From the NCBI GenBank assembly GCA_947623555.1, contig CANQGW010000005.1, positions 1 to 59,928 on the forward strand: a stretch of DNA of 59,928 bases, read 5' to 3'. This DNA is from an uncultured Clostridia bacterium. Its GTDB lineage: Bacteria > Bacillota > Clostridia > TANB77 > CAG-508. Under the pieces are notes generated by a model. That model was not told the DNA's origin. It did no database searches and was given only the letters and a program-made list of their open reading frames with translations. Shown here piece by piece: positions 272 to 49,789 of the stretch. The first letter of the stretch is position 1. The number at the start of each line of letters is the position of its first letter. A program made the translations under genes and the position numbers.

Positions 272-495
272 AAAATTTTCTTTAAGGTTTATACTTAAAG
301 AAAATTTTTATATATTTATAGTAGCAATAAAAGCCTACAATGTCAAGTAAAAATGGCAAAGTTTTATATAAATTTTTTTAAAAATATTTTCAAAAATTCC
401 TCATTTTTTGAAGTTGAAAAAATGCTTGTAATTAAGCGGTGTAGCTTATTACAAACATTTTTGCATTTTCTTTAAGTATAAACTTTAAAGAAAAG
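272..495. promoter_or_regulatory. putative invertible promoter cassette A, promoter currently facing away from the downstream gene
   Basis: Left site 272-308 (15-nt arms AAAATTTTCTTTAAG/CTTAAAGAAAATTTT, spacer GTTTATA). Right site 466-495 has the same arms with reverse-complement spacer TATAAAC. Interior has a minus-strand promoter (TTGACA = 346-341, 17-nt spacer with TGn, TACTAT = 323-318) and a symmetric A-tract/stem/T-tract hairpin at 415-465. Whole cassette is repeated at 1941-2165. Confidence 0.55.
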
Positions 496-512: not shown

Positions 513-1891
513 ATGTTGAAAAACAAAGGAATAACGCTAATCGCGTTAGTAGTAACCATAGTAGTATTATTAATATTAGCAGGTGTAAGTATAACTGCTG
601 TATTTGGAGAAAATGGAATAATAAATGGAGCCCAAAAGGCAAAAGATAAAACAGATGAATCTATAGAGCAAGAGCAAGAAGATGTAGGAAAACTAGTTAA
701 TCAATTAGAAGAGTTTGAAAGAGAAAGTTTGCCAGATACAGTAAAAGAAGCCATACAAAAAGGAACAATATTTACTGTAAATAAGCAAATAAAAGATGCA
801 ACTGGAAAGACAATGACAGTGCCAAAGGGGTTTAAAGTAAAAGAAGGAGAACTAATAGAAAATGGAGTAGTAATAGCAGACAGCGAAGGAAATGAATTTG
901 TGTGGATACCTTGTACAGTAGATGAATACAAAAAACATGACTATGAAGTAAAAGAGATAGATGATACTTCTAATAAAGCTGATGGAGAAAATAACGATAA
1001 AGGCTGGAACACACGTTCTTATAGAGCATATAATGACTGGAAAGATGATGAAATAGATGAAGCAGCAAATAAGAAAAGTGTACAAAATAATGGAGGCTTT
1101 TATATAGCAAGATATGAAGCAGGAGTACCAAAGGGTGCTAGCTTTTATGTAGATGCTTCAAGTGATAATAAACCATATCAAACAAGTAAAAATGATATAA
1201 GCGGAAATATAAAGCCAGTAAGTAAAAAAGGTGTGCAAGCATGGAATTTAATAAGTCAAATAAATGCTAAAGAAGTATCAGGAAGAATGTATAATGGAGA
1301 TAGTTACGGAGTAAGAAGTCAATTAGTAGATGGAACGGCATGGGATACGGTCGTAACATGGATGTCAAAAGATAGTAATTATAGTGGTATAGAAAAAGAT
1401 AGTACAAAATATGGAAACTATGCAGATAGTACTGGAAATAATCAAATAACAGCAGAGAATTGTTTATTTGCAGAACACTTATATAATTCTACAAGTAAAA
1501 CTTGGTACCTAGGAAAGAATTACCAATATGGATTATTCACATCTGGATATACAGCTTCGTACAAAGTTCCTGAAGGTGAAGGTGCAAACTATAATGGTTA
1601 TGATAGTGATGAAAAATGCACATATAATCATTATGTAGAAATGGCAACAGGAGTAAGTAGCAATACAAAATTAAAAAATATATGATATGGCAGGAAATAT
1701 TTATGAATGGACTACAGAATATGGATATCACGGTAACACATCCAGCAGTAAGAAGTACGCTGTTCTTCGTGGGGGGCGGTTTGAGCAACTTCGGTAATGA
1801 GAGTTCAGTTTCCATCCGCAATGGTATGCATTCGGACTCTGATGTAGGTCATCCTAGCCTCGGTTTCCGTGTTGTACTTTATGTAAAGTAA
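513..1891 (+). pseudogene. prepilin-leader / FGE-sulfatase-domain protein, paralog A, frame-disrupted
   Basis: ORFs 513-1685 and 1682-1891 are collinear with the intact paralog at 2183-3580. The frame breaks at an (AT)4->(AT)3 contraction near 1678-1685, creating in-frame TGA 1683-1685. It breaks again at in-frame CGG 1777-1779. The final frame ends in the shared GFRVVLYVK. Confidence 0.75.
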
Positions 1892-1940: not shown

Positions 1941-2165
1941 AAAACTTTTCTTTAAGGTTTATACTTAAAGAAAAGTTTTATATGTTTATAGTAACAATAA
2001 AAGCCTACAATGTCAAGGGAAAACACCAAAGTTTTATATAATTTTTTTGAAAAATATTTTTAAAAATTCCTCATTTTTTAAACTTTAAAAAATGCTTGTA
2101 ATTAAGCGGTGGGGCTTATTACAAGCATTTTTGCATTTTCTTTAAGTATAAACCTTAAAGAAAAG
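1941..2165. promoter_or_regulatory. putative invertible promoter cassette B, same orientation state as cassette A
   Basis: Left site 1941-1979 (16-nt arms, spacer GTTTATA). Right site 2136-2165 (spacer TATAAAC). Minus-strand TTGACA (2016-2011), 17 nt, TACTAT (1993-1988). Hairpin AAAAATGCTTGTAAT...ATTACAAGCATTTTT at about 2085-2133. Confidence 0.55.
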
Positions 2166-2182
2166 TTGCGAAGGAGGAAAAA

Positions 2183-3580
2183 GTGTTGAAAAACAAAGGA
2201 ATAACGCTAATTGCATTAGTAGTAACCATAGTGGTTTTATTAATATTAGCAGGAGTAAGTATAACAGCAGTGTTTGGAGAAAATGGAATAATAAGCGGAG
2301 CACAAAAGGCAAAAGAAAAAACAGATGAATCTATAAAACAAGAGCAAGAGGATGTAGGAAAACTAGTTAATCAATTAGAAGAGTTTGAAAGAGAAAGTTT
2401 GCCAGATACAGTAAAAGAAGCAATACAAAAAGGAACAATATTTGCTGTAAATAAGCAAATAAAAGATGAAACTGGAAAGACAATGACCGTGCCAAAGGGG
2501 TTTAAAGTAAAAGAAGGCACAACTATAGATGAAGGAGTAGTAATAGCAGATAGCGAAGGAAATGAATTTGTGTGGGTGCCATGTGAAGATGGAGCTTACA
2601 AAAAACATGAATATGAAGTAAAACAGGTGAATGATACCTCTAGTACAGCTGATGGAGAAAATAAGGATAAAGGCTGGAACACAATTTATTATAGAAAATA
2701 TAGTGACTGGAAAGATGATGAAGTAGATGAAACAGAAAATAAGAAAAGTGTACAAAATAATGGAGGCTTTTATATAGCAAGATATGAAGCAGGAGTACCA
2801 AGTAATGCAGACTTTTATGTAGATGAAAGTACATCTGACAAAAGTTATAAAGATGCAAATTCAAAAGATACAACGCAAACAAAAAATGGTGAAAATTTAA
2901 AACCAGTAAGTAAAGCAGGAAATCAATGCTGGAACTTAATAAGTCAAATAAATGCTAAAGAAGTATCAGGAAAAATGTATAGTGGAGATAGTTATGGAGT
3001 AAGAAGTCAATTAGTAGATGGAACAGCGTGGGATACGGTCGTAACATGGATATCAAAAGATAGTAATTATAGTGGTATAGAAAAAAATAGTCTCACACAT
3101 GGAAACTATGCAGATAGTGCTGGAAAAAATCAAATAATAGAAGAGAATTGTTTATTTGCAGAACACTTATATAACTCTACAAGTAAAACTTGGTGCATAG
3201 GAAAGAATTATCAATATGGATTATTCACATCTGGATATACAGCTTCATACAAAGTTCCTGAAGGTGAAGGTGCAAACTATAATGGTTATGATAGTGATGA
3301 AAAATGCACATATGCTCATTATGTAGAAATGGCAACAGGAGTAAGTAATAATACAAAATTAAAAAATATATATGACATGGCAGGAAATATGTACGAGTGG
3401 ACTACAGAATATGGATATCACGGTAGCACGTCTAGCAGTACGAAGTACGCTGTTCGTCGTGGAGGCAGCTTCTGGAGCACTGGTACCAACTGTCCAGTCT
3501 CTTACCGCCTTGGTGACGTTACGGCGACGGTCGCGGGTGTTCCTAGCTTCGGTTTCCGTGTCGTACTTTATGTAAAGTAG
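2183..3580 (+). CDS. prepilin-type N-terminal leader protein with C-terminal FGE-sulfatase (SUMF1-like) domain, paralog B
   Basis: 465-aa ORF with GTG start 7 nt after GGAGGA. N-terminus MLKNKGITLIALVVTIVVLLILAG looks like a type IV pilin-like cleavage/methylation signal plus hydrophobic helix. C-terminus carries FGE-type motifs (YEWT, RRGGSF, GFRVV). Confidence 0.8.
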   Translation: MLKNKGITLIALVVTIVVLLILAGVSITAVFGENGIISGAQKAKEKTDESIKQEQEDVGKLVNQLEEFERESLPDTVKEAIQKGTIFAVNKQIKDETGKTMTVPKGFKVKEGTTIDEGVVIADSEGNEFVWVPCEDGAYKKHEYEVKQVNDTSSTADGENKDKGWNTIYYRKYSDWKDDEVDETENKKSVQNNGGFYIARYEAGVPSNADFYVDESTSDKSYKDANSKDTTQTKNGENLKPVSKAGNQCWNLISQINAKEVSGKMYSGDSYGVRSQLVDGTAWDTVVTWISKDSNYSGIEKNSLTHGNYADSAGKNQIIEENCLFAEHLYNSTSKTWCIGKNYQYGLFTSGYTASYKVPEGEGANYNGYDSDEKCTYAHYVEMATGVSNNTKLKNIYDMAGNMYEWTTEYGYHGSTSSSTKYAVRRGGSFWSTGTNCPVSYRLGDVTATVAGVPSFGFRVVLYVK

Positions 3581-37682: not shown

Positions 37683-40600
37683 ATGAAAACAAAACAAAGA
37701 ATAATCGCATTATTTACCACTATTTTATTAGTATGCACAAACTTTGCTGGTATAGCAGGTAGTGTAATAGCAGTAGAAATGCCAGAACAAAACAACAAAA
37801 CAAATCACGCAAATGTAACATTTGATAGCTATTTAGAAGGAAACACACATAGCAAAACATATAAAGTAGCAGATCAAGCAAAAATGTATTTAAAGGTAGC
37901 TGTAAAAAATGCAGGATACTTAAAAAATGGTACAGTTAACATATCAAATACTGCTAACTATGAAATAGACACAAGTAACCTAAAAAATGACATGATACAA
38001 AGTGCTACCGAAGGACAAGTAAAATTAAAACAAATAGGTAGTGGAAGTGAAATAGAAATAGCACTACCAATAAAAATAAAAGAGTCAAATCAAGTAGATA
38101 AAGACTTTATTGAAAAAATTTCTGCGGTAACATTTAATGGAACATATATAGATGCAAACGGAAAAGAAGTAGCAATAACAAAAACAATAAATAACCAAAT
38201 TATTTGGGAAGAGCAAACAAGTTTAGAGTTAAGCAGTAAAGTAACAAAATACATCCCATTTAATGAAGGAGAAAATTATGGTGTTTTAGTACAAACTACA
38301 GTAAGTAGTAAAATAAAAGACCATAATTTGCCAGTTTCAAAAACAGAAATACAAATGCAAGTGCCAGAGATGGAAGGAACATTACCAGAGGAAGTAACAG
38401 TAGTAGCAAACCAAACAACAAATACAAACAATGATCAAACAGGAACAGAATTTAGTAAAGAAAATTATGAATACAATAAAGAAGCAAAAACAGTAAGCAT
38501 AAAAGTAGAAAACAAAGAAAATGCAGAAGGAAAAATAGCAAACAACAAAGAAGGAACAGATGAATATTTAGTAAACTTCATATATAAAGGAAAAGAGCTA
38601 TATGATAGCATGAAGGAAAAAACATTTGAAGCAGAATCAAACATACAAGCAAAAGTTATATTAAAAAATACAAATGAAACAGCAGTAGAAGGAACTAATA
38701 AAGTTACATATAAAGAAAAAGAAGAAAAAGGACTTTTAACAGATTTAGAAGTTTCTGCTACAAACAGTGTAAATAAAGGAAATATATATGCAAACTATGA
38801 AAAAGTAGCTCAAAATAAACAAGCAAATTTAGAAACAGAATATGAAACAAAATATGCAGTAAAAGTAAACAATAAAGAATTAAACAATAAAATAGAGTTT
38901 TTAACAGGAACAGAAAGCTATAAAAATGCAAAAGAAGAAGAAACCCAAGTAGGAACAGGAAGCTATATAAAAGAAATAGTAGTACCACAAAATATATTTA
39001 CAAAAATATTAGGGCAAGAAGGAAGCATTACAATAAATAGAGCAGATGGAAGTACAATAGCAACAATAGATGAAAAATCAGTAACAAAAGAAAACAAAGA
39101 AGAAAACAATAAAGAAACTGAAGAAGAAAATAAAGAAGAAGAAACACAAACAAATCCAGACTTAACAATAGAAAACGGAAATTATGTATTAAACATAGCA
39201 GAAAGAAGAGTGCAAGAAGTACAAATAAAAACAAGTAGTCCAGTAGAAGAAGGAACATTAAGCATAACATTAAAAAGAGCATTAAGTCATAATAAAAGCA
39301 TTACATTAAATGAAATGAAAACATTTAAAACATTAAATGTAACAGTAGAAAATGCAATGAACAACAATGTAAAACAAAAAGTAGAACAAGCTATAAACTT
39401 AAAAGAAGTAACAACAAAAGCCCAGTTAAGTATAGAAGCAGGAAAAGAGAACCTATCAACAGCAGTAGTAAATGAAAATGTAGAAATAAGAGCAACATTA
39501 GATATATCTAGCACAGAAAATGCCCTATACAAAAACCCAACATTAAAAATAAAAATGCCAAGTCAAATAAGTAAAGTAGACATCAATAAGAGTAGCTTAT
39601 TAATGGACGGCGGATTAAAAATAAAAGAAATAAAACAAGAAAAAGAAAATGAAAGTATAGTAATAAAAGTAGAATTAACAGGAAGTCAAACCGACTATGT
39701 AGAAAACGCAGACTACAAGGGAGCTATACTACTATTAGATACAAACCTAACAGTAGATACATTAGCAACAAGTGGAAGTAAAGAAATAAAAATGACATAC
39801 ACAAATGAAAATAGTGTATCAGAAAATAAAGAAGGAACAGCAGAAGCAAAAGTAAATATAGTAGCTCCAGTAGGAATAGTATCAGCAAACGGAATATCAA
39901 ACTATTCAAAAAATGAAAAAAATATAATGACAATTTCAGCAAACGAAGTAGAAGCAAACTTACAAACATATAGTGAAAAACAAATAGCAACAGTAAGTGG
40001 AAAAATAATAAACAACTATGGAAATAAAATAACAAATGTACAAGTACTAGGAAGAATACCAAGTAAAGAAAACACGAACACACAAACAGGAGAAAGTTTA
40101 GGTTCTACATTTGATAGTAAATTAAATAGTCCAGTAAAACTAACAGGAATAGACAGTAAAAACTATAAAGTATATTATTCAGATAAAGCAAATGCAACAA
40201 GAGAGTTAAATAATAGTGAAAACGGCTGGAAAGAGCAAGCAACAACAGGATCAAAATCATATTTAATAGTAACAAACAATTATGAAATGGAGCAAGGAGA
40301 AAAGATAGATTTTGAATACAACATAGAAATACCAGCAAACTTAAGCTATAATAACCAAGCATCAGAAATGTATCAAGTATATTATGAGAACGTATCAAAA
40401 GTAGGAACAATAGCAGAAACGAAAACATCACCAATAATAACAACCTCAACAGGAGAAGGACCAGAGCTAAAAGGAGAAATAAGCCAAACAATAGATACAG
40501 TTAGAGAAGGCCAAATAGTAAAAATGAAAGTAAAAGTAAGTAACACTGGTGGAATGGATGCTACTGATGTTAAAGTTACTGTTAAAAAGCCTACAGGTGC

Positions 40601-42737
40601 TAGCCTAGTAGAATATAAGTATCAAGAATTTTCTACTTCTATAGAAGAAAGCGAAACAATAGATATCGGTACATTATTTAAAGGGGAAACCATAGAAAAG
40701 TATTTTTACATCGAAGTAGAACCAGCAGTGGAATCATTAGCAGAATCAATTAACATTAATGCAAGTATTACAGCAAAAGAGCTAGAAAATAAAATACCTG
40801 TAGAATATACATTACAAAATGTGCAAGAAGGAAAATTACGTATTAGAACTATGGTGTTAACTAAAAACGGTAGTGAAGAGGGAGTATATTTATTAGGTCA
40901 AGAATTACAATTCTATATAGTGGTTAAAAACCTAGAATGGGATAGTACAGCGCAAAACGTAAAAGTAAATATACCAATGCCAGATATGTTTACTTATATA
41001 AGCGGAAAAGTAAAAGAAGATGTTATAGATGAAGGAACTTCAGATGGTATTACATATAATCAAAATAACCATAGTATTTCTGTAGATTTAGGAGCATTAA
41101 AAAATACAAAATATATTTATATAAATACTGGTGTAGCAAAACCAGGAAATGTATTTATTACAACAACTGCTACTGCAGAAGGTGTAGATACACATTATTC
41201 TAATGAATTTGAAGTATTAGTAGAACAGCCTCAAATTGAGCTTTCTAATTTAATTACTAATTCTAAATATATAAAAGAAGGCGAAATAGTTACACATGAA
41301 ATAGAAGTACGAAATGTAGGTAGAACAGATGTCCAAAACGTAAAAGTTGGTATTAACCTTCCAGAAGAATTTAATCTTGAAGACATATCTTATACTACAA
41401 ACAATGGTGAAATAATTACTTATACTAAAGGAGAGTTACAAGATGAAAATAAACTTGAAATAGAATTAGGAAATATAAATGTGGGAATAACAAGTTATAT
41501 TACTATTAGGTCTGAAGTTGGAACTATTTCAGAAGGTAATGAAAAAGAGGTAACAACTTATGTAACTGTTAATGTTACTGGTATTGATGAGCAAACAAGT
41601 AACAAAGTAACAAATGTTATAGAGTACAGTCAAGAAGTTCATGATAGAACAGAAGGAAATGAAAACTTGGGAGGAAGTGAAGGTTCTGGAGGAAGCACTA
41701 CTTCAAGAAATATAATATCAGGAACAGCATGGCTAGATGAAAACAAAAATGGTGCAAGAGAAGAGGAAGAACAATTACTTTCAAATGTACAAGTTGCATT
41801 ATTAAATAGTGCAGATAATTCTATTATAAAGGATAGTGACACAGGCGAAGACAAAGTAGTGCTAACTGATGAAAATGGTAAATATGCAATTACAAATGTG
41901 CAAAATGGAAGTTACATAGTAGTATTTGTATACGATTCATCAAACTACGGAGTAACAACTTACCAAGCCAAAGATATAGAAACAGGAGTAAATTCAGATG
42001 CAATAGAAATGAATATAACATTAAATGGAGAAAAAAGGTTAGCAGGAATAACAAACGTAATAAATGTAAATGGAAATAATGTAAGAGATATAGACATAGG
42101 CCTATATAAATTACAAAGATTTGATTTAAGGTTAGAAAAATATGTAAGCAAAATAACCCTAACAACACCAACAATAGGAACGAAGTTATATACAAACAAA
42201 GATAGTAAAATAGAGAAAGTAGAAATATTAAGTCAAAATGTAGGAAAAGCAAGTATGGTAATAGAGTACAAGCTAGTAGTAACCAATGAAGGAGCAGTAG
42301 CAGGATATGCTAAAAAGCTAGTAGACTACTTGCCAAGTTCAGTAAGCTTTAGTACAGACTTAAATAAAGACTGGTACTTATCAGAAAATGGAAATGTATA
42401 TAATGCAAGTTTAGCAAACACATTAATACAACCAGGGGAAAGTAAAGAAGTAACATTAGTATTAAGTAAAAAGATAACAGAAGAAGACATGGGAAATGTA
42501 CTAAACAATAATGCAGAGATATATGAAGCAGATAATGAGCAAGGCTTAAACGATATAGATTCGGTAGCAGGAAACAACGAATCAGAAGAAGATGATATAT
42601 CAAAAGCAGACATAGTAATATCAACAGTAACAGGAACAATAATAAAATACACAGGGTTAGGAATAGGAATAATAGCAATATTAGTAATAGGAATATATGA
42701 AATAAAAAAACATGTAATAAAAATAGAAAGGAGGTAA
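37683..42737 (+). CDS. giant cell-surface protein with DUF11/CARDB-like and SdrD B-like domains
   Basis: 1684 aa, signal peptide. Repeated beta-sandwich signatures (VKVSNTGGMDATDVKVTV, EVRNVGRTDVQNVKVGI). SdrD-B-like segment ISGTAWLDENKNG...TDENGKY. C-terminal hydrophobic helix plus a basic tail. Confidence 0.85.
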   Translation: MKTKQRIIALFTTILLVCTNFAGIAGSVIAVEMPEQNNKTNHANVTFDSYLEGNTHSKTYKVADQAKMYLKVAVKNAGYLKNGTVNISNTANYEIDTSNLKNDMIQSATEGQVKLKQIGSGSEIEIALPIKIKESNQVDKDFIEKISAVTFNGTYIDANGKEVAITKTINNQIIWEEQTSLELSSKVTKYIPFNEGENYGVLVQTTVSSKIKDHNLPVSKTEIQMQVPEMEGTLPEEVTVVANQTTNTNNDQTGTEFSKENYEYNKEAKTVSIKVENKENAEGKIANNKEGTDEYLVNFIYKGKELYDSMKEKTFEAESNIQAKVILKNTNETAVEGTNKVTYKEKEEKGLLTDLEVSATNSVNKGNIYANYEKVAQNKQANLETEYETKYAVKVNNKELNNKIEFLTGTESYKNAKEEETQVGTGSYIKEIVVPQNIFTKILGQEGSITINRADGSTIATIDEKSVTKENKEENNKETEEENKEEETQTNPDLTIENGNYVLNIAERRVQEVQIKTSSPVEEGTLSITLKRALSHNKSITLNEMKTFKTLNVTVENAMNNNVKQKVEQAINLKEVTTKAQLSIEAGKENLSTAVVNENVEIRATLDISSTENALYKNPTLKIKMPSQISKVDINKSSLLMDGGLKIKEIKQEKENESIVIKVELTGSQTDYVENADYKGAILLLDTNLTVDTLATSGSKEIKMTYTNENSVSENKEGTAEAKVNIVAPVGIVSANGISNYSKNEKNIMTISANEVEANLQTYSEKQIATVSGKIINNYGNKITNVQVLGRIPSKENTNTQTGESLGSTFDSKLNSPVKLTGIDSKNYKVYYSDKANATRELNNSENGWKEQATTGSKSYLIVTNNYEMEQGEKIDFEYNIEIPANLSYNNQASEMYQVYYENVSKVGTIAETKTSPIITTSTGEGPELKGEISQTIDTVREGQIVKMKVKVSNTGGMDATDVKVTVKKPTGASLVEYKYQEFSTSIEESETIDIGTLFKGETIEKYFYIEVEPAVESLAESININASITAKELENKIPVEYTLQNVQEGKLRIRTMVLTKNGSEEGVYLLGQELQFYIVVKNLEWDSTAQNVKVNIPMPDMFTYISGKVKEDVIDEGTSDGITYNQNNHSISVDLGALKNTKYIYINTGVAKPGNVFITTTATAEGVDTHYSNEFEVLVEQPQIELSNLITNSKYIKEGEIVTHEIEVRNVGRTDVQNVKVGINLPEEFNLEDISYTTNNGEIITYTKGELQDENKLEIELGNINVGITSYITIRSEVGTISEGNEKEVTTYVTVNVTGIDEQTSNKVTNVIEYSQEVHDRTEGNENLGGSEGSGGSTTSRNIISGTAWLDENKNGAREEEEQLLSNVQVALLNSADNSIIKDSDTGEDKVVLTDENGKYAITNVQNGSYIVVFVYDSSNYGVTTYQAKDIETGVNSDAIEMNITLNGEKRLAGITNVINVNGNNVRDIDIGLYKLQRFDLRLEKYVSKITLTTPTIGTKLYTNKDSKIEKVEILSQNVGKASMVIEYKLVVTNEGAVAGYAKKLVDYLPSSVSFSTDLNKDWYLSENGNVYNASLANTLIQPGESKEVTLVLSKKITEEDMGNVLNNNAEIYEADNEQGLNDIDSVAGNNESEEDDISKADIVISTVTGTIIKYTGLGIGIIAILVIGIYEIKKHVIKIERR

Positions 42738-42742
42738 CACAG

Positions 42743-45700
42743 ATGAAAAAGAAAATAATAATATGGGTAGCAATAGTAATGTTACTAATAGCAGGAATAA
42801 TAGGTATAATAGCATATAAATCAAATAACTTATTAGCAGCAGAACCAGCAACTATTAGTAAAAGTACTACTGTTACTAAAAGTGGGAGTGCATCAACTGC
42901 AGTAAGTACCAGATCATATGGTACACTTCTTGATACAAGTTTTTTTGAGATAACAGGTGTAGGATGGGATGGAATCCCTACATACACGGATGAGGAAACG
43001 GGGATTACCTACACGCTTCACTGCTATCAACATGGAATAAGATTACGTTGGAATAACTATAATACGATGGAATATTCGCATGATGAGATAGTACAAATGA
43101 GAGATAAAATCTTCGAGTTTACTTTACCTGATCAAAGACTTACGTATGATATTTGGAATAGGAATTGGCCCGTAGAAAACGGTGGCTACTGGTGTACGCC
43201 TTATTATGAGAAATCTGGTTCAGGCAGTTTAAGCGATTGTGAAGCATATATATATTCATCTGGTTCAAGTTATGCCGACAAGCAAAATGCTATTTGGAAT
43301 TTGCAAGAGCATTCGACTAGCACTCTTGTTACAGAGGGAAATAAGTATAGTGCTTATAAAAGCAAAGTAAGTAATAATGGTATGAACCCAAATGATGCTA
43401 CTGATGTAAAATCTGTGCAGGTTACTTTAAACAATACAAACACAACAACTTCAGAAGAAACTATAGGACCATTCAAAATTACATACAATGCTGGAAATAA
43501 TATGTTTTCAGGAATAACTAACATAGTGGCAATTGGGTATAACAAAAATGACCAAGTAGTAAAAAATAATATTAGAATTAAAGCTTTTTATTTACAAAGT
43601 GCGCCTAATGTTTATTCTAATAGAATACAACCAAGTTATTTCTCGCCAGATTCATATTTTGTAGATAAAAGTGGGGAGATAAGAAAGTACCCTTCATCTG
43701 GTCAAAACTTTAAAATTGTAATTGATAACCCAAATGTAGGTAAAAGTGAAACTGATCCAAACTGGATAACTACATATGGAATTAAAGTAACATTTAAATA
43801 TATGTTGGCAGATGGTTCTTACGTTTCTTATTCAGGACATCAAGAACGCCTTACACACACCAGATTGGAACAAAGATACAATCCACGTGGTGAAACTACA
43901 TATATAAAATGGCAACTTGTGAGTGAAATATATAATTGCCAAAATCAAGAATCAGTAACAGCAAAAAGAAGTCAATACATGCAAGAGATAACAATTAAAT
44001 TACCACAGCAAGAAACTACTACCGGTAACTTAACAGTACAAAAATTTGTAATAGGAGAGAATGTTGATACAAACAAGGCATTTAATTTTACAGTAACATT
44101 AAGTAATAAAAACATAACTGGAACATACGACGATATGACATTTAAAAATGGTGTAGCAACATTTACTTTAAAACATAAGCAAAAGAAAGTAGCAACTGGC
44201 TTACCAGCAGGAATAACATACACAGTAGTAGAGTCAGAAGCAAATAAAAATGGATATACAACAACATATTCTGGAACAACAGGAACCATAAAAGCAAAAA
44301 CAACTAGTGTGGCGGTAATTACAAATAAAAAGAACATCAAACATTATGGAACTTTATCAGTAAAAAAGGTTGTAACAGGAGAAGCAGGTGATAAAAATAA
44401 AAACTTTAATTTTACAGTAACATTAAGTGATAAAACCATAACTGGAACATACGGAGAAATGAAGTTTACAAATGGTGTAGCAACATTTACATTAAAACAT
44501 GGACAGTCAAAAACAGCAGAAAAACTACCAGAAAAAATAACATACACAGTAGTAGAGAAAGAAGCAAATAAAGATGGATATACAACAACATATTCTGGAA
44601 CAACAGGAACAATATCTGAACAAAAAACTAGTGTAGCAACAGTTACTAACTATAAAGACGTTGACAAAGGTAACTTAACAGTAAAAAAGGTTGTAACAGG
44701 AGAAGCAGGAGAAAAAAATAAAGAATTTAATTTTACAGTAACATTAAGTAATAAAAACATAAATGGAACATACGGAGAAATGACGTTTAAAAATGGTGTA
44801 GCAACATTTGCCTTAAAACATGGACAGTCAAAAACAGCAGAAAAACTACCAGTAGGAATAACATACACAGTAAAAGAAAAAGAGGCAAATAAGGATGGAT
44901 ATAAAACAACATATTCTGGAGAAACAGGAACCATATCAAAACAAAAGACAAGTGTAGCAACAGTTACTAACGATAACGGAGGCGGTGACAAAGGTAACCT
45001 AACAGTACAAAAAGTTGTAACTGGAGAAGCAGGTGATAAAAATAAAAACTTTAATTTTACAGTAACATTAAGTGATAATAAAATAAATGGAAAATATGGA
45101 GACATGACCTTTGTAAATGGTGTAGCAAAATTTCCATTAAAACATGGACAGTCAAAAACAGCAACTGAATTACCAGTAGGAATAACATACAAAGTAGTAG
45201 AAGCAGAGGCAAATAAAGATGGATATAAAACAACATATACTGGAACAACAGGAACAATATCAAAACAAAAAACAAGTGTAGCGGCATTTACTAACGATAA
45301 AACTACTGGCAATGGTAACCTAACAGTACAAAAGGTTGTAATAGGGGATAAAATTGACACAAACAAGGCATTTAATTTTACAGTAACATTAAGTGATAAA
45401 AACATAAATGGAAAGTATGGAGAAATGACCTTTGAAAATGGTGTAGCAAAATTTAGCTTAAAACATGGACAGTCAAAAACAGCAGAAAGACTACCAGCAG
45501 GAATAACATACACAGTAGTAGAAGCAGAAGCAAATACAAATGGATATAAAACAACATATACTGGAGAAACAGGAACCATAAAAGCAAAAACAACTAGTGT
45601 TGCGGTAGTTACAAATAAAAAAGACGACATCAAACATTATGGAGATTTATCAGTACAAAAGGTTGTAACAGGAGAATTAGGAGAAAAAAATAAAAGCTTT

Positions 45701-48700
45701 AACTTTACAGTAACATTAAGTGATAAAAGCATAAATGGAAAGTATGGGGATATGACCTTTAAAAATGGTGTAGCAACATTTACCTTAAAACATAAAGAAT
45801 CGAAAACAGCAGAAAAGCTACCAGAAGGATTAGAGTATACAGTAATAGAAAAAGAGGCAGGACAAGAAGGTTATGAAACAAGTTATACAGGAACAACAGG
45901 AACCATAACGAAAAGCTCTGCATCTGTAGCTACATTTACTAACCATAAAGAAATTAAAACTTATATGGAATTAGGTGGATATGTATGGTTGGACTCTGAA
46001 CAAGGCAAAACCGATCAAAATGATGGTATAAAAGGTAGCGGAGAGAAGGTATTTAAAAATATTAAAGTATCATTATATGATGCTTCAACAAATAAACTAG
46101 CAACATTAGTGCCAGATAAAGTACAGCCATCAGATGATAATATATTCCATAAAGTTAACCCAACATTAACAGATGAAAATGGTTACTATGAATTTTCAGG
46201 ATTAAACCCATTAAAAAGGTATTATGTAGTATTTGAATATAATGGACAAAAATATTTACCTACAGATTATTTAACATATAATGGAACAAAATATTCAAGT
46301 ATACAAGATATGGTAAATAGAGGTTTATATTGGAAGGATGGAGATAGTACAGCACAGTGGAAAGGTACTTCAAAAGCTGGAGAAAATGGGTCTGACAGAA
46401 ATAACTTAAATAATAAATTTTCAGAAATAGGATCATCACCAAAAGGCTATCAAGTTACAAGCTTTGTATCAAGTTCTACAGCATTAAAAAATGCTTTAGC
46501 AAAAGATGGTGGCAAATACTATAACACAGCATATTCAGAAAATGAGCTTATGGGCTTTGTAATGGGAGAAGATGGTGACTATACACAAGGAACAAGGCTA
46601 CTAGATGGATTTAAAGCAATAGATAATGATGGAAATATAGTATCATCAGACACGATTCAAGAAGGCGAAATTAGTAAAGCAATAAGAAATTATGTTAAAA
46701 CTAATAAAAAATATCCAGATAATACAGCTATGGAACAAATATATGCAAAGATAGCAGGAAACAATGTAGAAACTTGGAGAAAGTTACAATATATATATGA
46801 TACAACAATAAAATCATACACAGGAAAGCCAGCCACAACAGTAGCAAAGGAGACCTACCCAGTATATACTAATAAGTTTACAATAAGTAATCAAAAAGAA
46901 ACAGTAACAAATGGAATTATATGTACTAATTGTAATGGAACCGGAAAAGTTAATTGCCCAGGTAACATTACAAAATCTCCATCGTACTATTTGGATAGTT
47001 ATTATTGTCCTCGATGTCAAAAGACATGGAACGGTCCAGGCAATAAGCAGAAGGCTGCAGCTAGGACTTGGTACTGCACGTTATGTCATTTTACAAATGT
47101 GTGTAAAACCTGCCCTAAAGGACATGCTTGGTATAGCCAAGGATCTGATAATGAGCACACTATCCAAAAACCAAAGATTGATTGTCCAACATGTAAAGGA
47201 ACAGGGTATACAGGCTATGCAACTGAAACATATGAACCAATATACCCAGGACAATACTTTATCAACCTAGGTTTATATGAAAGACCAAAAGCAGATGTAT
47301 CAGTTAATAAAGATATATACCGTGTAGCAACAAGAATAAATGGAAAAACAGAGGTATATAACTACGGAAGAAGCAAAGATGATGTTTGGGATCTTCAAGT
47401 AAGAATGAGAGATTATGATAATTACTATGGAGATTACTACAATAGAGATTTATATCAATCAGATATTGACTATAATGCGGCAAGAACGAACAAATCTGGC
47501 AAAAATTTAGAAGTATATGTAACATATAAAATTTCAGTATCAAATAATTCAATAGGAAGAAATGGTGAAGGACTTCTAGTAGAAATACCAGAGATAGTAG
47601 ATTACTATGATAAAGACTTTACATATATGCCAAACTTATCATGGGCAGTAGGAACACCAACTAATGCATCGTACTACAATACAATGAGTAACTTAAAACT
47701 AAATATTTCAGGTGCAAAAGCTGTAAATACTTATAATACTTCTAAATATGGTGCTATTACACATTCAGATTTAACACAAACATACAATGCTGTATACATT
47801 CGTGGATTAGCAGGACAAAAGTTAAAAACAGGAGAAAAAGTATATATATTCTTAACATTTAAAGTAAATACAGATAGTAATGGAAAAGTTATATTAGATA
47901 ATGATGTTAATAGCTTAAAGCAAAATTATGTTGAGATTAATGGATACAAAGCATATTATGCTTCAGGAACTAAATTACCAAATGGTGTAACAATAAATAA
48001 TACTACTACACCAGCAGGATTAGTAGACCAAGACTCAACACCAGGTAACCTAGCAAAACAAGATTTAACAGGAAACAGATATGAGAAGAACTTCGAAGAT
48101 GATACAGATAGAGCAAAAGGCTTAAGAATACAAGTAACAACAGAAGGCGAAAGAGAGATAAATGGTGTCGTATGGGAAGATCAAAGAACAAAAACAATAA
48201 GTAATGCAATAATAGGTGATGGTATAAGACAAAGTGGAGAAATTGGAATACAAGGTGTAAGTGTAGAACTAGTAGAAAAAATGGCTAATGGAAATGAATA
48301 TGTATGGCAAACAGTAACAACAAGAGAAGGCGGATCGTATGCACTTACCGACTTTATACCAGGAGACTATATAGTAAGGTTTAAGTACGGAGATAAGGTA
48401 GATACAGTACAGACATCAACAAATGGAGGAAGCAATAGTGTATCATATAACGGACAAGACTTTAAATCAACAGTATATAATAAAAACTTAAATACAAATG
48501 CTACTTTATCTAACAAACAAGTAAATGGTCAAGAAGCATATAATATTAAAGACGCAGATAATTTAACAAAGAGCGGAATAAATATGTCAGATGCAAAAGA
48601 TTTATGGAAGAGAAGAGAAGAGGTAAATAACTATAGTACAACAAATGTTACAAACCATAAAGCAGAAGTACTAGCATCACCATATAATAATGCTACAAAT

Positions 48701-49789
48701 AACAGCTTGATACAAGAATTAATAACAAATACAAACATGGTAGCAGAAACACCATTAATAGTAGCAGAAGTAGAATATAACCAAACAGAAACAAATGGAA
48801 ATAACCAAGGAAGATACGTTTTCGAATCTTTAGACTTTGGCTTAACAGAAAGACCAAAAGCACAATTAGAATTAAGCAAAAAAGTAACAAATGTAAAAGT
48901 AGTATTAGCAAATGGAAATACCCTATTTGATAGTGGAAAGTCAGTAGACAATTTAGCATGGCTAGAAGGAAAAGCATATAATCTAAATTCAAAGAAGAGT
49001 AACAATAAATATGACGAATACTATAATGAAAGTAAAACAGATAAAACATATAACCGTTACTCATATAGAACAAAAATAGATGATCTAGTAAATGGATTAT
49101 ATGACTCATATCCAAAAGGATCAAACGGATTAATACAAGCAACAATGGATAACGAGTTAATGCATGGAGCAACTATAACAATAAGTTATGGAATAACCAT
49201 AACAAACGTAGGGGAAACCGACTACACAGGACAAGACTTCTATTACAAGGGCGAAGGAGCTTCAGAAAGTAACAAAGTAACTACATCAGCTGATGCTGTA
49301 TTAGATTATGTAGCAAATAACCTACAATATAGGCAAGCAGACAACGAAGGCTGGGAAACAATAAAAGCTGACAAGTTAATAAGTGATAAATTAGTTAATG
49401 ACAGTTTAAAAGACGAACTAAAAACTGTTAACACAATTGTAAAGACAGAAGCATTAAAGAAAAACTTAAAACCAGGAGAAAGTTCACAAAGTACATTAAA
49501 TTTATCACAAACTATGACAGTAGAAAACACAACTGATGACAGAACATACGAAAATATAGCCGAAATAGTACAAACAAGTAATACAGTAGGAAGAAGAATG
49601 GCATATTCAATAGTAGGAAATCAAGACCCAACAAAAGCACCAGCAGAAGTAGATAGTGCAACAGGAGAGCAAGTAATAGTATTACCACCATTTGGAGCTA
49701 TGCAATATGTATACTATGGAATAGGAGTACTAGTAGTAGGAATGTTAATTGCCGGAATTATTTTCATAAAGAAAAAGGTAATTAAATAG
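42743..49789 (+). CDS. giant cell-surface adhesin with CnaB-type repeats, SdrD B-like domains and a Cys-rich insert
   Basis: 2348 aa, starts 5 nt after the previous stop. N-terminal anchor/signal. Possible thioester-domain motifs. Six ~108-aa tandem repeats. Two SdrD-B-like segments (YVWLDSEQ...TDENGYY; VVWEDQR...). C-terminal VLPPFG, a hydrophobic helix, then KKKVIK. Confidence 0.85.
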   Translation: MKKKIIIWVAIVMLLIAGIIGIIAYKSNNLLAAEPATISKSTTVTKSGSASTAVSTRSYGTLLDTSFFEITGVGWDGIPTYTDEETGITYTLHCYQHGIRLRWNNYNTMEYSHDEIVQMRDKIFEFTLPDQRLTYDIWNRNWPVENGGYWCTPYYEKSGSGSLSDCEAYIYSSGSSYADKQNAIWNLQEHSTSTLVTEGNKYSAYKSKVSNNGMNPNDATDVKSVQVTLNNTNTTTSEETIGPFKITYNAGNNMFSGITNIVAIGYNKNDQVVKNNIRIKAFYLQSAPNVYSNRIQPSYFSPDSYFVDKSGEIRKYPSSGQNFKIVIDNPNVGKSETDPNWITTYGIKVTFKYMLADGSYVSYSGHQERLTHTRLEQRYNPRGETTYIKWQLVSEIYNCQNQESVTAKRSQYMQEITIKLPQQETTTGNLTVQKFVIGENVDTNKAFNFTVTLSNKNITGTYDDMTFKNGVATFTLKHKQKKVATGLPAGITYTVVESEANKNGYTTTYSGTTGTIKAKTTSVAVITNKKNIKHYGTLSVKKVVTGEAGDKNKNFNFTVTLSDKTITGTYGEMKFTNGVATFTLKHGQSKTAEKLPEKITYTVVEKEANKDGYTTTYSGTTGTISEQKTSVATVTNYKDVDKGNLTVKKVVTGEAGEKNKEFNFTVTLSNKNINGTYGEMTFKNGVATFALKHGQSKTAEKLPVGITYTVKEKEANKDGYKTTYSGETGTISKQKTSVATVTNDNGGGDKGNLTVQKVVTGEAGDKNKNFNFTVTLSDNKINGKYGDMTFVNGVAKFPLKHGQSKTATELPVGITYKVVEAEANKDGYKTTYTGTTGTISKQKTSVAAFTNDKTTGNGNLTVQKVVIGDKIDTNKAFNFTVTLSDKNINGKYGEMTFENGVAKFSLKHGQSKTAERLPAGITYTVVEAEANTNGYKTTYTGETGTIKAKTTSVAVVTNKKDDIKHYGDLSVQKVVTGELGEKNKSFNFTVTLSDKSINGKYGDMTFKNGVATFTLKHKESKTAEKLPEGLEYTVIEKEAGQEGYETSYTGTTGTITKSSASVATFTNHKEIKTYMELGGYVWLDSEQGKTDQNDGIKGSGEKVFKNIKVSLYDASTNKLATLVPDKVQPSDDNIFHKVNPTLTDENGYYEFSGLNPLKRYYVVFEYNGQKYLPTDYLTYNGTKYSSIQDMVNRGLYWKDGDSTAQWKGTSKAGENGSDRNNLNNKFSEIGSSPKGYQVTSFVSSSTALKNALAKDGGKYYNTAYSENELMGFVMGEDGDYTQGTRLLDGFKAIDNDGNIVSSDTIQEGEISKAIRNYVKTNKKYPDNTAMEQIYAKIAGNNVETWRKLQYIYDTTIKSYTGKPATTVAKETYPVYTNKFTISNQKETVTNGIICTNCNGTGKVNCPGNITKSPSYYLDSYYCPRCQKTWNGPGNKQKAAARTWYCTLCHFTNVCKTCPKGHAWYSQGSDNEHTIQKPKIDCPTCKGTGYTGYATETYEPIYPGQYFINLGLYERPKADVSVNKDIYRVATRINGKTEVYNYGRSKDDVWDLQVRMRDYDNYYGDYYNRDLYQSDIDYNAARTNKSGKNLEVYVTYKISVSNNSIGRNGEGLLVEIPEIVDYYDKDFTYMPNLSWAVGTPTNASYYNTMSNLKLNISGAKAVNTYNTSKYGAITHSDLTQTYNAVYIRGLAGQKLKTGEKVYIFLTFKVNTDSNGKVILDNDVNSLKQNYVEINGYKAYYASGTKLPNGVTINNTTTPAGLVDQDSTPGNLAKQDLTGNRYEKNFEDDTDRAKGLRIQVTTEGEREINGVVWEDQRTKTISNAIIGDGIRQSGEIGIQGVSVELVEKMANGNEYVWQTVTTREGGSYALTDFIPGDYIVRFKYGDKVDTVQTSTNGGSNSVSYNGQDFKSTVYNKNLNTNATLSNKQVNGQEAYNIKDADNLTKSGINMSDAKDLWKRREEVNNYSTTNVTNHKAEVLASPYNNATNNSLIQELITNTNMVAETPLIVAEVEYNQTETNGNNQGRYVFESLDFGLTERPKAQLELSKKVTNVKVVLANGNTLFDSGKSVDNLAWLEGKAYNLNSKKSNNKYDEYYNESKTDKTYNRYSYRTKIDDLVNGLYDSYPKGSNGLIQATMDNELMHGATITISYGITITNVGETDYTGQDFYYKGEGASESNKVTTSADAVLDYVANNLQYRQADNEGWETIKADKLISDKLVNDSLKDELKTVNTIVKTEALKKNLKPGESSQSTLNLSQTMTVENTTDDRTYENIAEIVQTSNTVGRRMAYSIVGNQDPTKAPAEVDSATGEQVIVLPPFGAMQYVYYGIGVLVVGMLIAGIIFIKKKVIK
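44024..45964 (+). repeat. six tandem ~324-nt coding repeats (CnaB/prealbumin-fold type domains)
   Basis: Each unit reads G(N/T/D)L(T/S)V(Q/K)K(V/F)V.G....KN..FNFTVTLS...I.G.YG.M.F.NGVA.F.LKH...K.A..LP.GI.Y.V.E.EA...GY.T.Y.G.TGTI.....SVA..TN. Confidence 0.9.

Follow-up and report, generated by a model that had tools for sequence, protein, structure and literature searches.

Cassette B and its paralog

The stretch of DNA analysed here (the window; 59,928 nucleotides of contig CANQGW010000005.1 from an uncultured Clostridia bacterium) contains two adjacent genes, A and B, that are 87% identical and belong to a family with pilin-like products. Each gene is preceded by a short cassette bounded by inverted repeats (Table 1). 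An initial annotation, made from the sequence alone, had read the cassette upstream of gene B (cassette B) as a second copy of the architecture of cassette A and as an invertible promoter switch in the OFF state. The comparison with related loci supports this core reading through covariation of the site spacers, the occurrence of both orientations with exchanged half-sites, and a recombinase gene that adjoins the cassettes in relatives. The shared architecture is also borne out, as cassettes A and B are identical at 219 of 237 positions (92%).

Cassette B is 219 bp long (1946–2164), with 161 bp of interior between its two sites, and is, as a promoter inverton should be, a short segment bounded by inverted repeats. 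The sites lie 190 bp apart and are reverse complements of one another at 29 of 29 positions, the match of their 7-bp spacers being likewise exact. Each consists of 11-bp inverted arms around a nonpalindromic spacer, as in a tyrosine-recombinase core site of the lox/FRT/dif type. The flanks lengthen the palindrome of the left site to 16-nt arms (1941–1979); these arms and the opposite spacers had already been noticed in the initial annotation. With up to two mismatches allowed, the site pattern occurs five times in the window, as against 0.00 expected (100 shuffles), and all five sites are associated with the one family of switched genes.

The interior of cassette B contains a sigma-70-type promoter directed leftward, with a 17-nt spacer that includes TG and a −10 element ending 13 nt from the inner arm. 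No comparable plus-strand promoter is present in the cassette, so that, judged on sequence alone, the internal promoter could drive the adjacent gene in one orientation only. The promoter differs from that of cassette A at 1 of 29 positions. A similar geometry is seen across the family, where the best sigma-70-like match in most related cassettes has its −10 element ending 11–15 nt from an inner arm; the conservation claimed initially for the promoter at 2016–1988 therefore holds. On the minus strand the distal site folds into a 16-bp hairpin, followed by UUGUUUUUU. The leader between the proximal site and the GTG start codon is identical to that of cassette A at 18 of 18 positions.

Between the promoter and the proximal site, close to the latter, is a second hairpin. 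Its predicted folding energy is −22.3 kcal/mol for the plus strand (z −5.4) and −20.5 kcal/mol for the minus strand (z −7.2). Its stem had been described as perfect over 2085–2133. A strong hairpin is indeed present, but it contains one bulged U and is not strictly perfect. Cassettes A and B both contain the hairpin; it recurs in one further cassette by sequence-level alignment (L155, see below) and in analogous form in L038, and it is missing from most relatives. From this distribution it appears to be a lineage-specific accessory outside the core mechanism of the switch family. An Rfam search of both cassettes matched no family.

Cassettes A and B differ less often in the parts expected to function than elsewhere: 5 mismatches fall among the 150 positions of the sites, promoter, hairpin, and ribosome-binding site (RBS), as against 13 among the 87 remaining positions (Fisher p = 0.0018). 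The site positions are conserved at 57 of 58, and the remaining interior differs at 15%. The initial observation that sites, promoter, and hairpin are kept while the rest drifts is thus confirmed. A 40-codon open reading frame (ORF) in cassette A (353–475) was considered as a gene and rejected, as its ATG is absent from cassette B and the ORF is not conserved.

Table 1. Positions in the window of the cassettes, their parts, and the associated genes
Feature	Position	Strand	Description
Distal recombination site, cassette B (putative)	1946–1974		TTTTCTTTAAG (11-bp arm), 7-bp spacer GTTTATA, CTTAAAGAAAA (11-bp arm)
Gene-proximal recombination site, cassette B (putative)	2136–2164		TTTTCTTTAAG, spacer TATAAAC, CTTAAAGAAAA
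Sigma-70-type promoter in the invertible segment	1988–2016	−	Leftward, away from gene B; −35 TTGACA 2016–2011, −10 TACTAT 1993–1988
Hairpin	2088–2132		19 bp, one bulge, A-run and T-run flanks, terminator-like on both strands
Leader with ribosome-binding site	2165–2182	+	AAGGAGG (2171–2177), upstream of GTG start
Switched gene B	2183–3580	+	465 amino acids, GTG start; pilin-like N-terminal hydrophobic helix and C-type-lectin/FGE-sulfatase-fold domain
Cassette A	276–494		Also OFF; sites 276–304 and 466–494 (one mismatch), minus-strand promoter 346–318, hairpin 418–462
Switched gene A	513–1891	+	Frameshift near 1683, giving ORFs 513–1685 and 1682–1891
Solitary third site	58591–58715	+	Site 58591–58619, spacer TATAAAC; then RBS and first ~21 codons of the switched-gene family

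Conserved arms and covarying spacers in related cassettes

Public genomes and metagenomes were scanned for TTTTCTTTAAG-N7-CTTAAAGAAAA, which returned 52 loci. Nearly all are from metagenome-assembled genomes (MAGs) of uncultured gut Clostridia or "Bacilli", and the hosts include humans (Hadza and others), rabbit, chicken, and roe deer. Sites were paired by their arms only, at a distance of 120–350 bp and with the spacer ignored. Perfectly reverse-complementary 7-bp spacers are found in 40 of the 45 candidate pairs defined in this way, as they are in cassettes A and B, and 24 different spacers are represented. Of the other five, three are false pairings that overlap true ones. The chance of a reverse-complementary 7-bp spacer is about 6e-5 per pair; therefore the spacers covary, the arms being conserved and the spacer being free to differ between cassettes while matched to that of its partner. 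Such covariation reads as the signature of a tyrosine-recombinase overlap region. Homology between the overlaps of partner sites is required for recombination by lambda Int, Cre, Flp, and XerCD.

A search that was agnostic to the core sequence found 18 pairs, all of them AAG-N7-CTT, as against 0 in shuffled DNA. The arm sequence varies by recombinase lineage (CTTTAAG, CATTAAG/CGTTAAG, TATTAAG, and CTCAAAG) around this constant core, and the family can be searched for as TC-N3-AAG-N7-CTT-N3-GA with reverse-complementary partner spacers. The same inverton family is also found in front of another class of genes (L025 at 474 and 7128, L040 at 5798, and L029 at 6314), whose products have N-termini such as MKKIKISQNMMLLLLMVVATIVMGIGYASIE that are not pilin-like. 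The switch is therefore not restricted to one protein family.

A cassette 92–93% identical to those of the window is found on a 1886-bp contig from another sample (L155; ENA ERZ27249647). Its proximal site is identical at 29 of 29 positions, though nucleotide identity in its gene reaches only 83%. The contig breaks (1–30) exactly within the distal site, and a break of this kind is expected at a repeated or invertible element. The metagenome scan returned no match to the proximal junction of the window, and no other locus bearing the window's spacer was found among the searched genome contigs. Look-ups of exact protein sequences, both for proteins of the window and for close NCBI relatives, likewise gave no match.

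Both orientations occur in relatives

Two tandem paralogous cassettes on a single contig (L042_4977 and L042_6444) have gene-side flanks that are co-directional (85%) and interiors that are reversed with respect to each other (84%). The former carries two CGTTAAG-type arms in its distal site and two CTTTAAG-type arms in its proximal site, and the latter carries one of each per site; the inner arms have thus been exchanged exactly, as predicted for a crossover inside the spacer. A comparable pair is found within one MAG, where L022 and L025_2830 share a 98% identical flank but have inverted interiors (87%), with a distinctive ACGT inner arm that moves along with the promoter end. This travelling of inner arms with the segment, as for a crossover in the overlap, is seen in relatives only, in these two pairs. 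A third instance of contrasting orientation is provided by L024 (ON) and L035 (OFF).

The ON cassettes L022, L026, and L029 contain the sigma-70-like promoter TTGATA-17-TATAAT and L024 contains TTGATT-17-TATTAT, in all cases 13–14 nt upstream of the proximal site. The OFF cassettes, including cassettes A and B, have the equal promoter geometry toward the distal site, pointing away from the gene. An automated call of orientation in the related cassettes gave 30 OFF, 7 ON, and 27 undetermined. In consensus assemblies, then, the majority state is usually OFF, which would fit the expression of only one or a few members of the family at a time.

A tyrosine recombinase adjoins the cassettes in relatives

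Locus L044, which includes a 63% identical homologue of protein B, encodes a 313-residue tyrosine recombinase two genes upstream of an array of three cassettes. This recombinase contains Phage_int_SAM_3 and Phage_integrase domains, and the TGxRxGE, HxLRHT, and catalytic Tyr motifs are conserved. Homologues adjoin the sites in L033, L060, and L065. A genome-wide scan was made with an alignment of the recombinase and the best 80 loci were kept; at least one cassette lies within 3 kb in 21 of these 80, and shuffled sequence (489 kb) contained none. The cassette usually starts 10 bp to about 120 bp from the 3′ end of the recombinase gene. The site-bearing MAGs CANQJH, CAKPHD, CAMZHI, and CAJFJM also encode the recombinase, and in CAMZHI the recombinase gene and a series of cassette-gene units follow one another on one contig.

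The recombinase scores below every NCBIfam cutoff, and its nearest solved relatives are Tn1549 Int and XerA. Homologues from Lachnospiraceae (about 40% identity) are mostly without AAG-N7-CTT pairs nearby.

A recombinase gene followed by tandem cassette-gene units, each with its own spacer, is the arrangement in L042/L092 (CAMZHI010000002.1), L044, L076, L087, and L093. In such arrays the OFF-state promoter of the first cassette runs back into the recombinase gene from its 3′ side. By analogy with the orientational control of fimE, the state of the switch might feed back on expression of the recombinase.

Interpretation of cassette B

We interpret cassette B as a tyrosine-recombinase (lox-like) promoter inverton that is OFF in the assembly, and we put the probability of this reading at roughly 0.8. 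The switch of the window would presumably be served by a copy of the recombinase encoded elsewhere in the genome, which would bind both 29-bp sites, exchange strands inside the spacers, and invert the 161-bp interior. In the assembled OFF state the sole good promoter is directed away from gene B, and its transcript would probably be very short, ending at the hairpin and U-run of the distal site. This promoter had been described as antisense to the 3′ end of paralog A; its leftward orientation stands, but the transcript probably stops before paralog A is reached. The two-way hairpin at 2088–2132 would meanwhile keep transcripts of gene A from running on into gene B. Once the segment is inverted, TTGACA-17-TACTAT would come to lie upstream of the proximal site at a distance of 13 nt; transcription would start a few bases before the site, by prediction about 6–7 nt, and would cross both the site and the RBS to enter gene B. 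In this state the hairpin would be on the upstream side of the promoter and could serve as an insulator. The outcome would be ON/OFF phase variation of a single gene within a family of variable surface proteins.

The main uncertainty of this reading lies in the step from descent to present activity, namely that cassette B would still flip in its own genome, and several observations weigh against it. No recombinase gene of any type was found in the window, either by Pfam searches of 39 of the larger ORFs (two under 110 amino acids) or by tblastn with the L044 recombinase. The searched genome and metagenome collections contain no contigs of the same species, and the window is one consensus contig; the evidence for opposite orientations comes from paralogous and orthologous cassettes in relatives rather than from one locus sampled twice. 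The copies in the window's own lineage (cassettes A and B and L155) are all OFF and, together with the frameshift in gene A, this could mean that the array is decaying. Promoter-like matches are also not above chance in this AT-rich window (22 found, 19.9 expected), and the match in cassette B is meaningful because its position is fixed across the cassette family.

Cassette B could accordingly be an inverton by descent whose recombinase has been lost or is inactive, leaving the switch locked OFF and the gene pair to decay. The lack of a nearby recombinase, the frameshift in gene A, the decayed cassette remnant at 58591, and the OFF state of every copy from this lineage would all fit such a history. 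We consider it unlikely, since both sites of cassette B are perfect and the site positions are almost unchanged from cassette A, in contrast to the diverged remainder of the interior. The promoter and RBS are also intact, the ORF of gene B runs its full length and yields an AlphaFold model with a mean predicted local distance difference test score of 87.6, and OFF is the commonest state among the consensus assemblies of relatives as well. A fixed divergent promoter flanked by palindromes that serve as operators for a dimeric transcription factor, or as terminator hairpins, would involve no rearrangement at all. Each site is palindromic and could bind a dimer, and the sites fold as hairpins with a one-sided U-run, but this would leave unexplained why the spacers differ from locus to locus and yet match within 40 of the 45 pairs of partner sites, and why two orientations of the interior with exchanged inner arms exist. 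A fixed promoter directed away from the sole adjacent gene would moreover be without a target, and we regard this explanation as very improbable.

The cassettes also resemble miniature inverted-repeat transposable elements with 29-bp terminal repeats inserted upstream of genes, as they are short, AT-rich, and present in multiple copies. This origin seems least credible of all: the flanks (...caaaaaac / gttgcgaa...) show no target-site duplication, the distance to the RBS of a surface-protein gene is fixed in all cases, the conserved arms enclose cassette-specific spacers that are not the product of copying one element, and only 5 sites occur in 60 kb, all at one gene family. A serine invertase of the Hin/Gin/Mpi type was rejected, as the 29-bp site is centred on a single base, the whole 7-bp spacer covaries, and the enzyme of relatives is a tyrosine recombinase; serine invertases act at even-length sites with a central 2-bp crossover and are accompanied by a serine recombinase gene. 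An Rci-type shufflon was rejected because all sites are intergenic, just upstream of the RBS, and do not lie within or between alternative coding segments, where inversion would alter the C-terminus of the protein. A terminator switch of the cwpV type was rejected because the hairpin is terminator-like on both strands and the promoter is inside the element.

The third site and exchange between cassettes

The solitary site at 58591 is identical to the proximal site of cassette B (2136–2164), and the locus matches 2136–2230 at 90 of 95 positions. It contains no cassette interior and no partner site, and unrelated sequence follows after about 21 codons. The locus looks like a decayed, promoterless remnant of a cassette, the interior of which was possibly lost by deletion between directly repeated 11-bp arms. 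An 11-nt match to the end of the paralog gene, ATGTAAAGTAA, is located 7 nt upstream of this site.

The sites of cassettes A and B and the third site have the common spacer GTTTATA/TATAAAC and are compatible in principle. Recombination between the sites at 466 and 1946 would invert gene A, between 276 and 1946 would delete gene A along with its cassette, and between 58591 and either 1946 or 276 would invert about 56 kb. The shufflon-like exchange suggested in the initial annotation is therefore possible between cassettes A and B, but no data show that it takes place, and in relatives neighbouring cassettes nearly always differ in spacer. The relatives with at least two cassettes (three in L044, in L042/L092, and in each of the USFC and CAKPRG MAGs; five in L025/L022/L040) include a single pair of neighbours with a shared spacer, in CAKPHD. 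The difference between neighbours suggests selection against cross-talk, analogous to the use of engineered heterospecific lox sites. The shared spacer of the window probably derives from duplication; genes A and B are 87% identical. If differing spacers do insulate neighbouring cassettes, the common spacer of cassettes A and B and the remnant would leave this locus naturally open to inversion or deletion from one cassette to another.

The switched genes and a possible link to diversity-generating retroelements

Protein B has a pilin-like N-terminus (KGITLIALVVTIVVLLILAG), although its match to PF07963 is weak and below threshold and the usual Glu5 is missing. The C-terminus gives a weak FGE-sulfatase match and ends in ...GFRVV.... 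The window is the only contig known to encode this exact protein, homologues of which number more than 5,000. In the AlphaFold model an N-terminal helix and a long second helix are followed by a globular domain. The best matches to the model in the PDB are the variable proteins TaqVP, TvpA, and Mtd of diversity-generating retroelements (DGRs), followed by enzymes of the FGE fold, with template-modelling (TM) scores of only 0.3–0.4 that indicate likeness at the level of the fold alone. We infer a surface location and an adhesin role for protein B.

The last ~120 nt of both genes (1760–1880 in gene A and 3450–3570 in gene B) have a GC content of 0.5–0.6 and an A content of 0.08–0.2, as against 0.3 and 0.45, respectively, in the body of the gene. 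Such a GC-rich, A-poor 3′ end is also found in homologues at about 30 loci. In relatives this 3′ region is a genuine DGR variable region, with a complete DGR next to the homologue. In L018 (60–2163), the gene ends ahead of an Avd-like ORF, a reverse transcriptase with the YMDD motif, and two template repeats, and all differences between these repeats and the variable region are at template adenines. L007 (1597–5567) has one template and two variable regions. The 3′ ends of genes A and B look like DGR variable regions in their composition. Neither a DGR template repeat nor a reverse transcriptase was found in the window (Pfam searches included), and DGR activity on genes A and B may be taken as a lead.

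The frameshift in gene A falls in an (AT)n run at 1675–1690, where gene A reads ...aaaaatatatgatatgg... and gene B reads ...aaaaatatatatgacatgg.... Gene A could be a pseudogene, it could carry a second switch of the slippage type, or the frameshift could be an assembly error.

Genomic context

The window is otherwise an ordinary stretch of chromosome of low GC content (about 29%) from an organism of the spore-forming Clostridia type. Genes identified in it include those for tRNA-Arg, tadA, dnaX, ybaB, recR, ypeB, ddl, prfA, pcrA, mreBCD, a penicillin-binding protein, minC, spoIIE, and tatD. Two ORFs (11727–12416 and 12523–13122) make up a split Mur ligase gene, and spoIIE is also split (50055–50819 and 50803–52551). 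Taken together with gene A, these split genes suggest sequencing frameshifts in the contig or gene decay. Two adjacent, very large ORFs at 37683–49789 (1684 and 2348 amino acids) contain DUF11, SdrD_B, and DUF7601/DUF5979 repeats and probably encode giant adhesins of the cell surface. A TraG/VirD4-type coupling protein is encoded at 17295–18788.

Significance and comparison with known systems

Invertible promoters are a well-known source of surface variation in gut bacteria, most of the well-understood cases being those of Bacteroides, E. coli, and C. difficile. The cassettes described here constitute a large and apparently new switch family of the classical promoter-inverton kind in uncultured gut Clostridia. 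In the literature searched, coverage of which was incomplete, no description was found of the site motif, the recombinase subfamily, or the pairing of an inverton with a DGR-type pilin-like gene, and a search by site sequence gave irrelevant matches only. Large in-silico inverton catalogues may already list members.

The site definition and the candidate recombinase together define this family in uncultured low-GC gut Clostridia of humans, rabbits, chickens, and ruminants. With a spacer particular to each cassette, one enzyme could run many switches without scrambling the chromosome, and such sites could serve as orthogonal recombination sites. It is possible, though we would place it somewhat short of even odds, that one recombinase family runs arrays of independent switches, in which the arms recruit the enzyme and the spacer of each cassette insulates it from its neighbours, and that the lectin-fold, pilin-like proteins so switched are hypermutated by DGRs at their binding tips. 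Two systems of variation would then act on one surface-protein family, the first choosing which gene is ON and the second choosing the binding variant. These organisms may thus stack phase variation on targeted hypermutation.

The DGR proteins TaqVP (5vf4), TvpA (2y3c), and Mtd (1yu1) share the C-type-lectin/FGE fold with the globular domain of protein B. They differ in having no pilin-like N-terminus, and the window in turn is without template repeat and reverse transcriptase.

A precedent for an invertible promoter in front of a pilus-type product exists in the case of fimS of E. coli, which controls type 1 fimbriae through FimB and FimE. In fimS, as here, the promoter is on a small invertible element (~300 bp), and tyrosine recombinase genes are directly upstream; the order of recombinase, inverton, and gene in relatives of the window is that of fimS. 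The fimS element has 9-bp inverted repeats, requires IHF and Lrp, and is a single switch per operon, whereas the family described here forms arrays of switches with 29-bp lox-like sites.

Within the Clostridia, C. difficile harbors several RecV-dependent switches, including cwpV/Cdi1, the flagellar switch Cdi4, and the cmr switch Cdi6, in which one tyrosine recombinase acts, often remotely, on a number of small invertible elements in front of genes for surface or signalling functions (PMC5903667). The inverted repeats of these switches are mostly unrelated to one another, in contrast to the cassette B family, where the arms are conserved in all sites. At cwpV, switching works through formation of a terminator downstream of a fixed promoter. 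Cassette B has an internal promoter instead, and its symmetric hairpin alone cannot distinguish ON from OFF.

Inverton group 139 of the hCom2 community (Clostridia), for which flipping was shown by reads, has been connected with "invertase group 35", a tyrosine recombinase group encoded next to it. By their description, these gut Clostridia invertons resemble the present family in being short (~200–250 bp) and in having a tyrosine recombinase within 5 kb (PMC11892184). The mpl (P35) lipoprotein genes of Mycoplasma penetrans each have their own invertible promoter (Horino et al. 2003, as cited in PMC2268961). In the account given there, these paralogous surface genes are often in tandem, independent ON/OFF switching of each through its small invertible promoter is supposed, and tyrosine recombinases are encoded near some of the clusters (PMC2268961). 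The organism, sites, and proteins are unrelated to those described here, and the comparison is by description only. As far as that description extends, cassette B differs in its full 11-7-11 palindromic core sites with cassette-specific spacers, and in switching pilin-like lectin-fold proteins rather than lipoproteins.

The closest parallel to the sites themselves is offered by Cre/loxP and Flp/FRT, in which inverted arms likewise enclose a short asymmetric spacer that sets the direction of recombination and must match between partners. The lox and FRT sites have a 13-8-13 layout, and lox sites with different spacers do not cross-react. The cassette B family has an 11-7-11 layout and a recombinase that is only distantly related, and insulation of its neighbouring cassettes would depend on the same principle of spacer difference.

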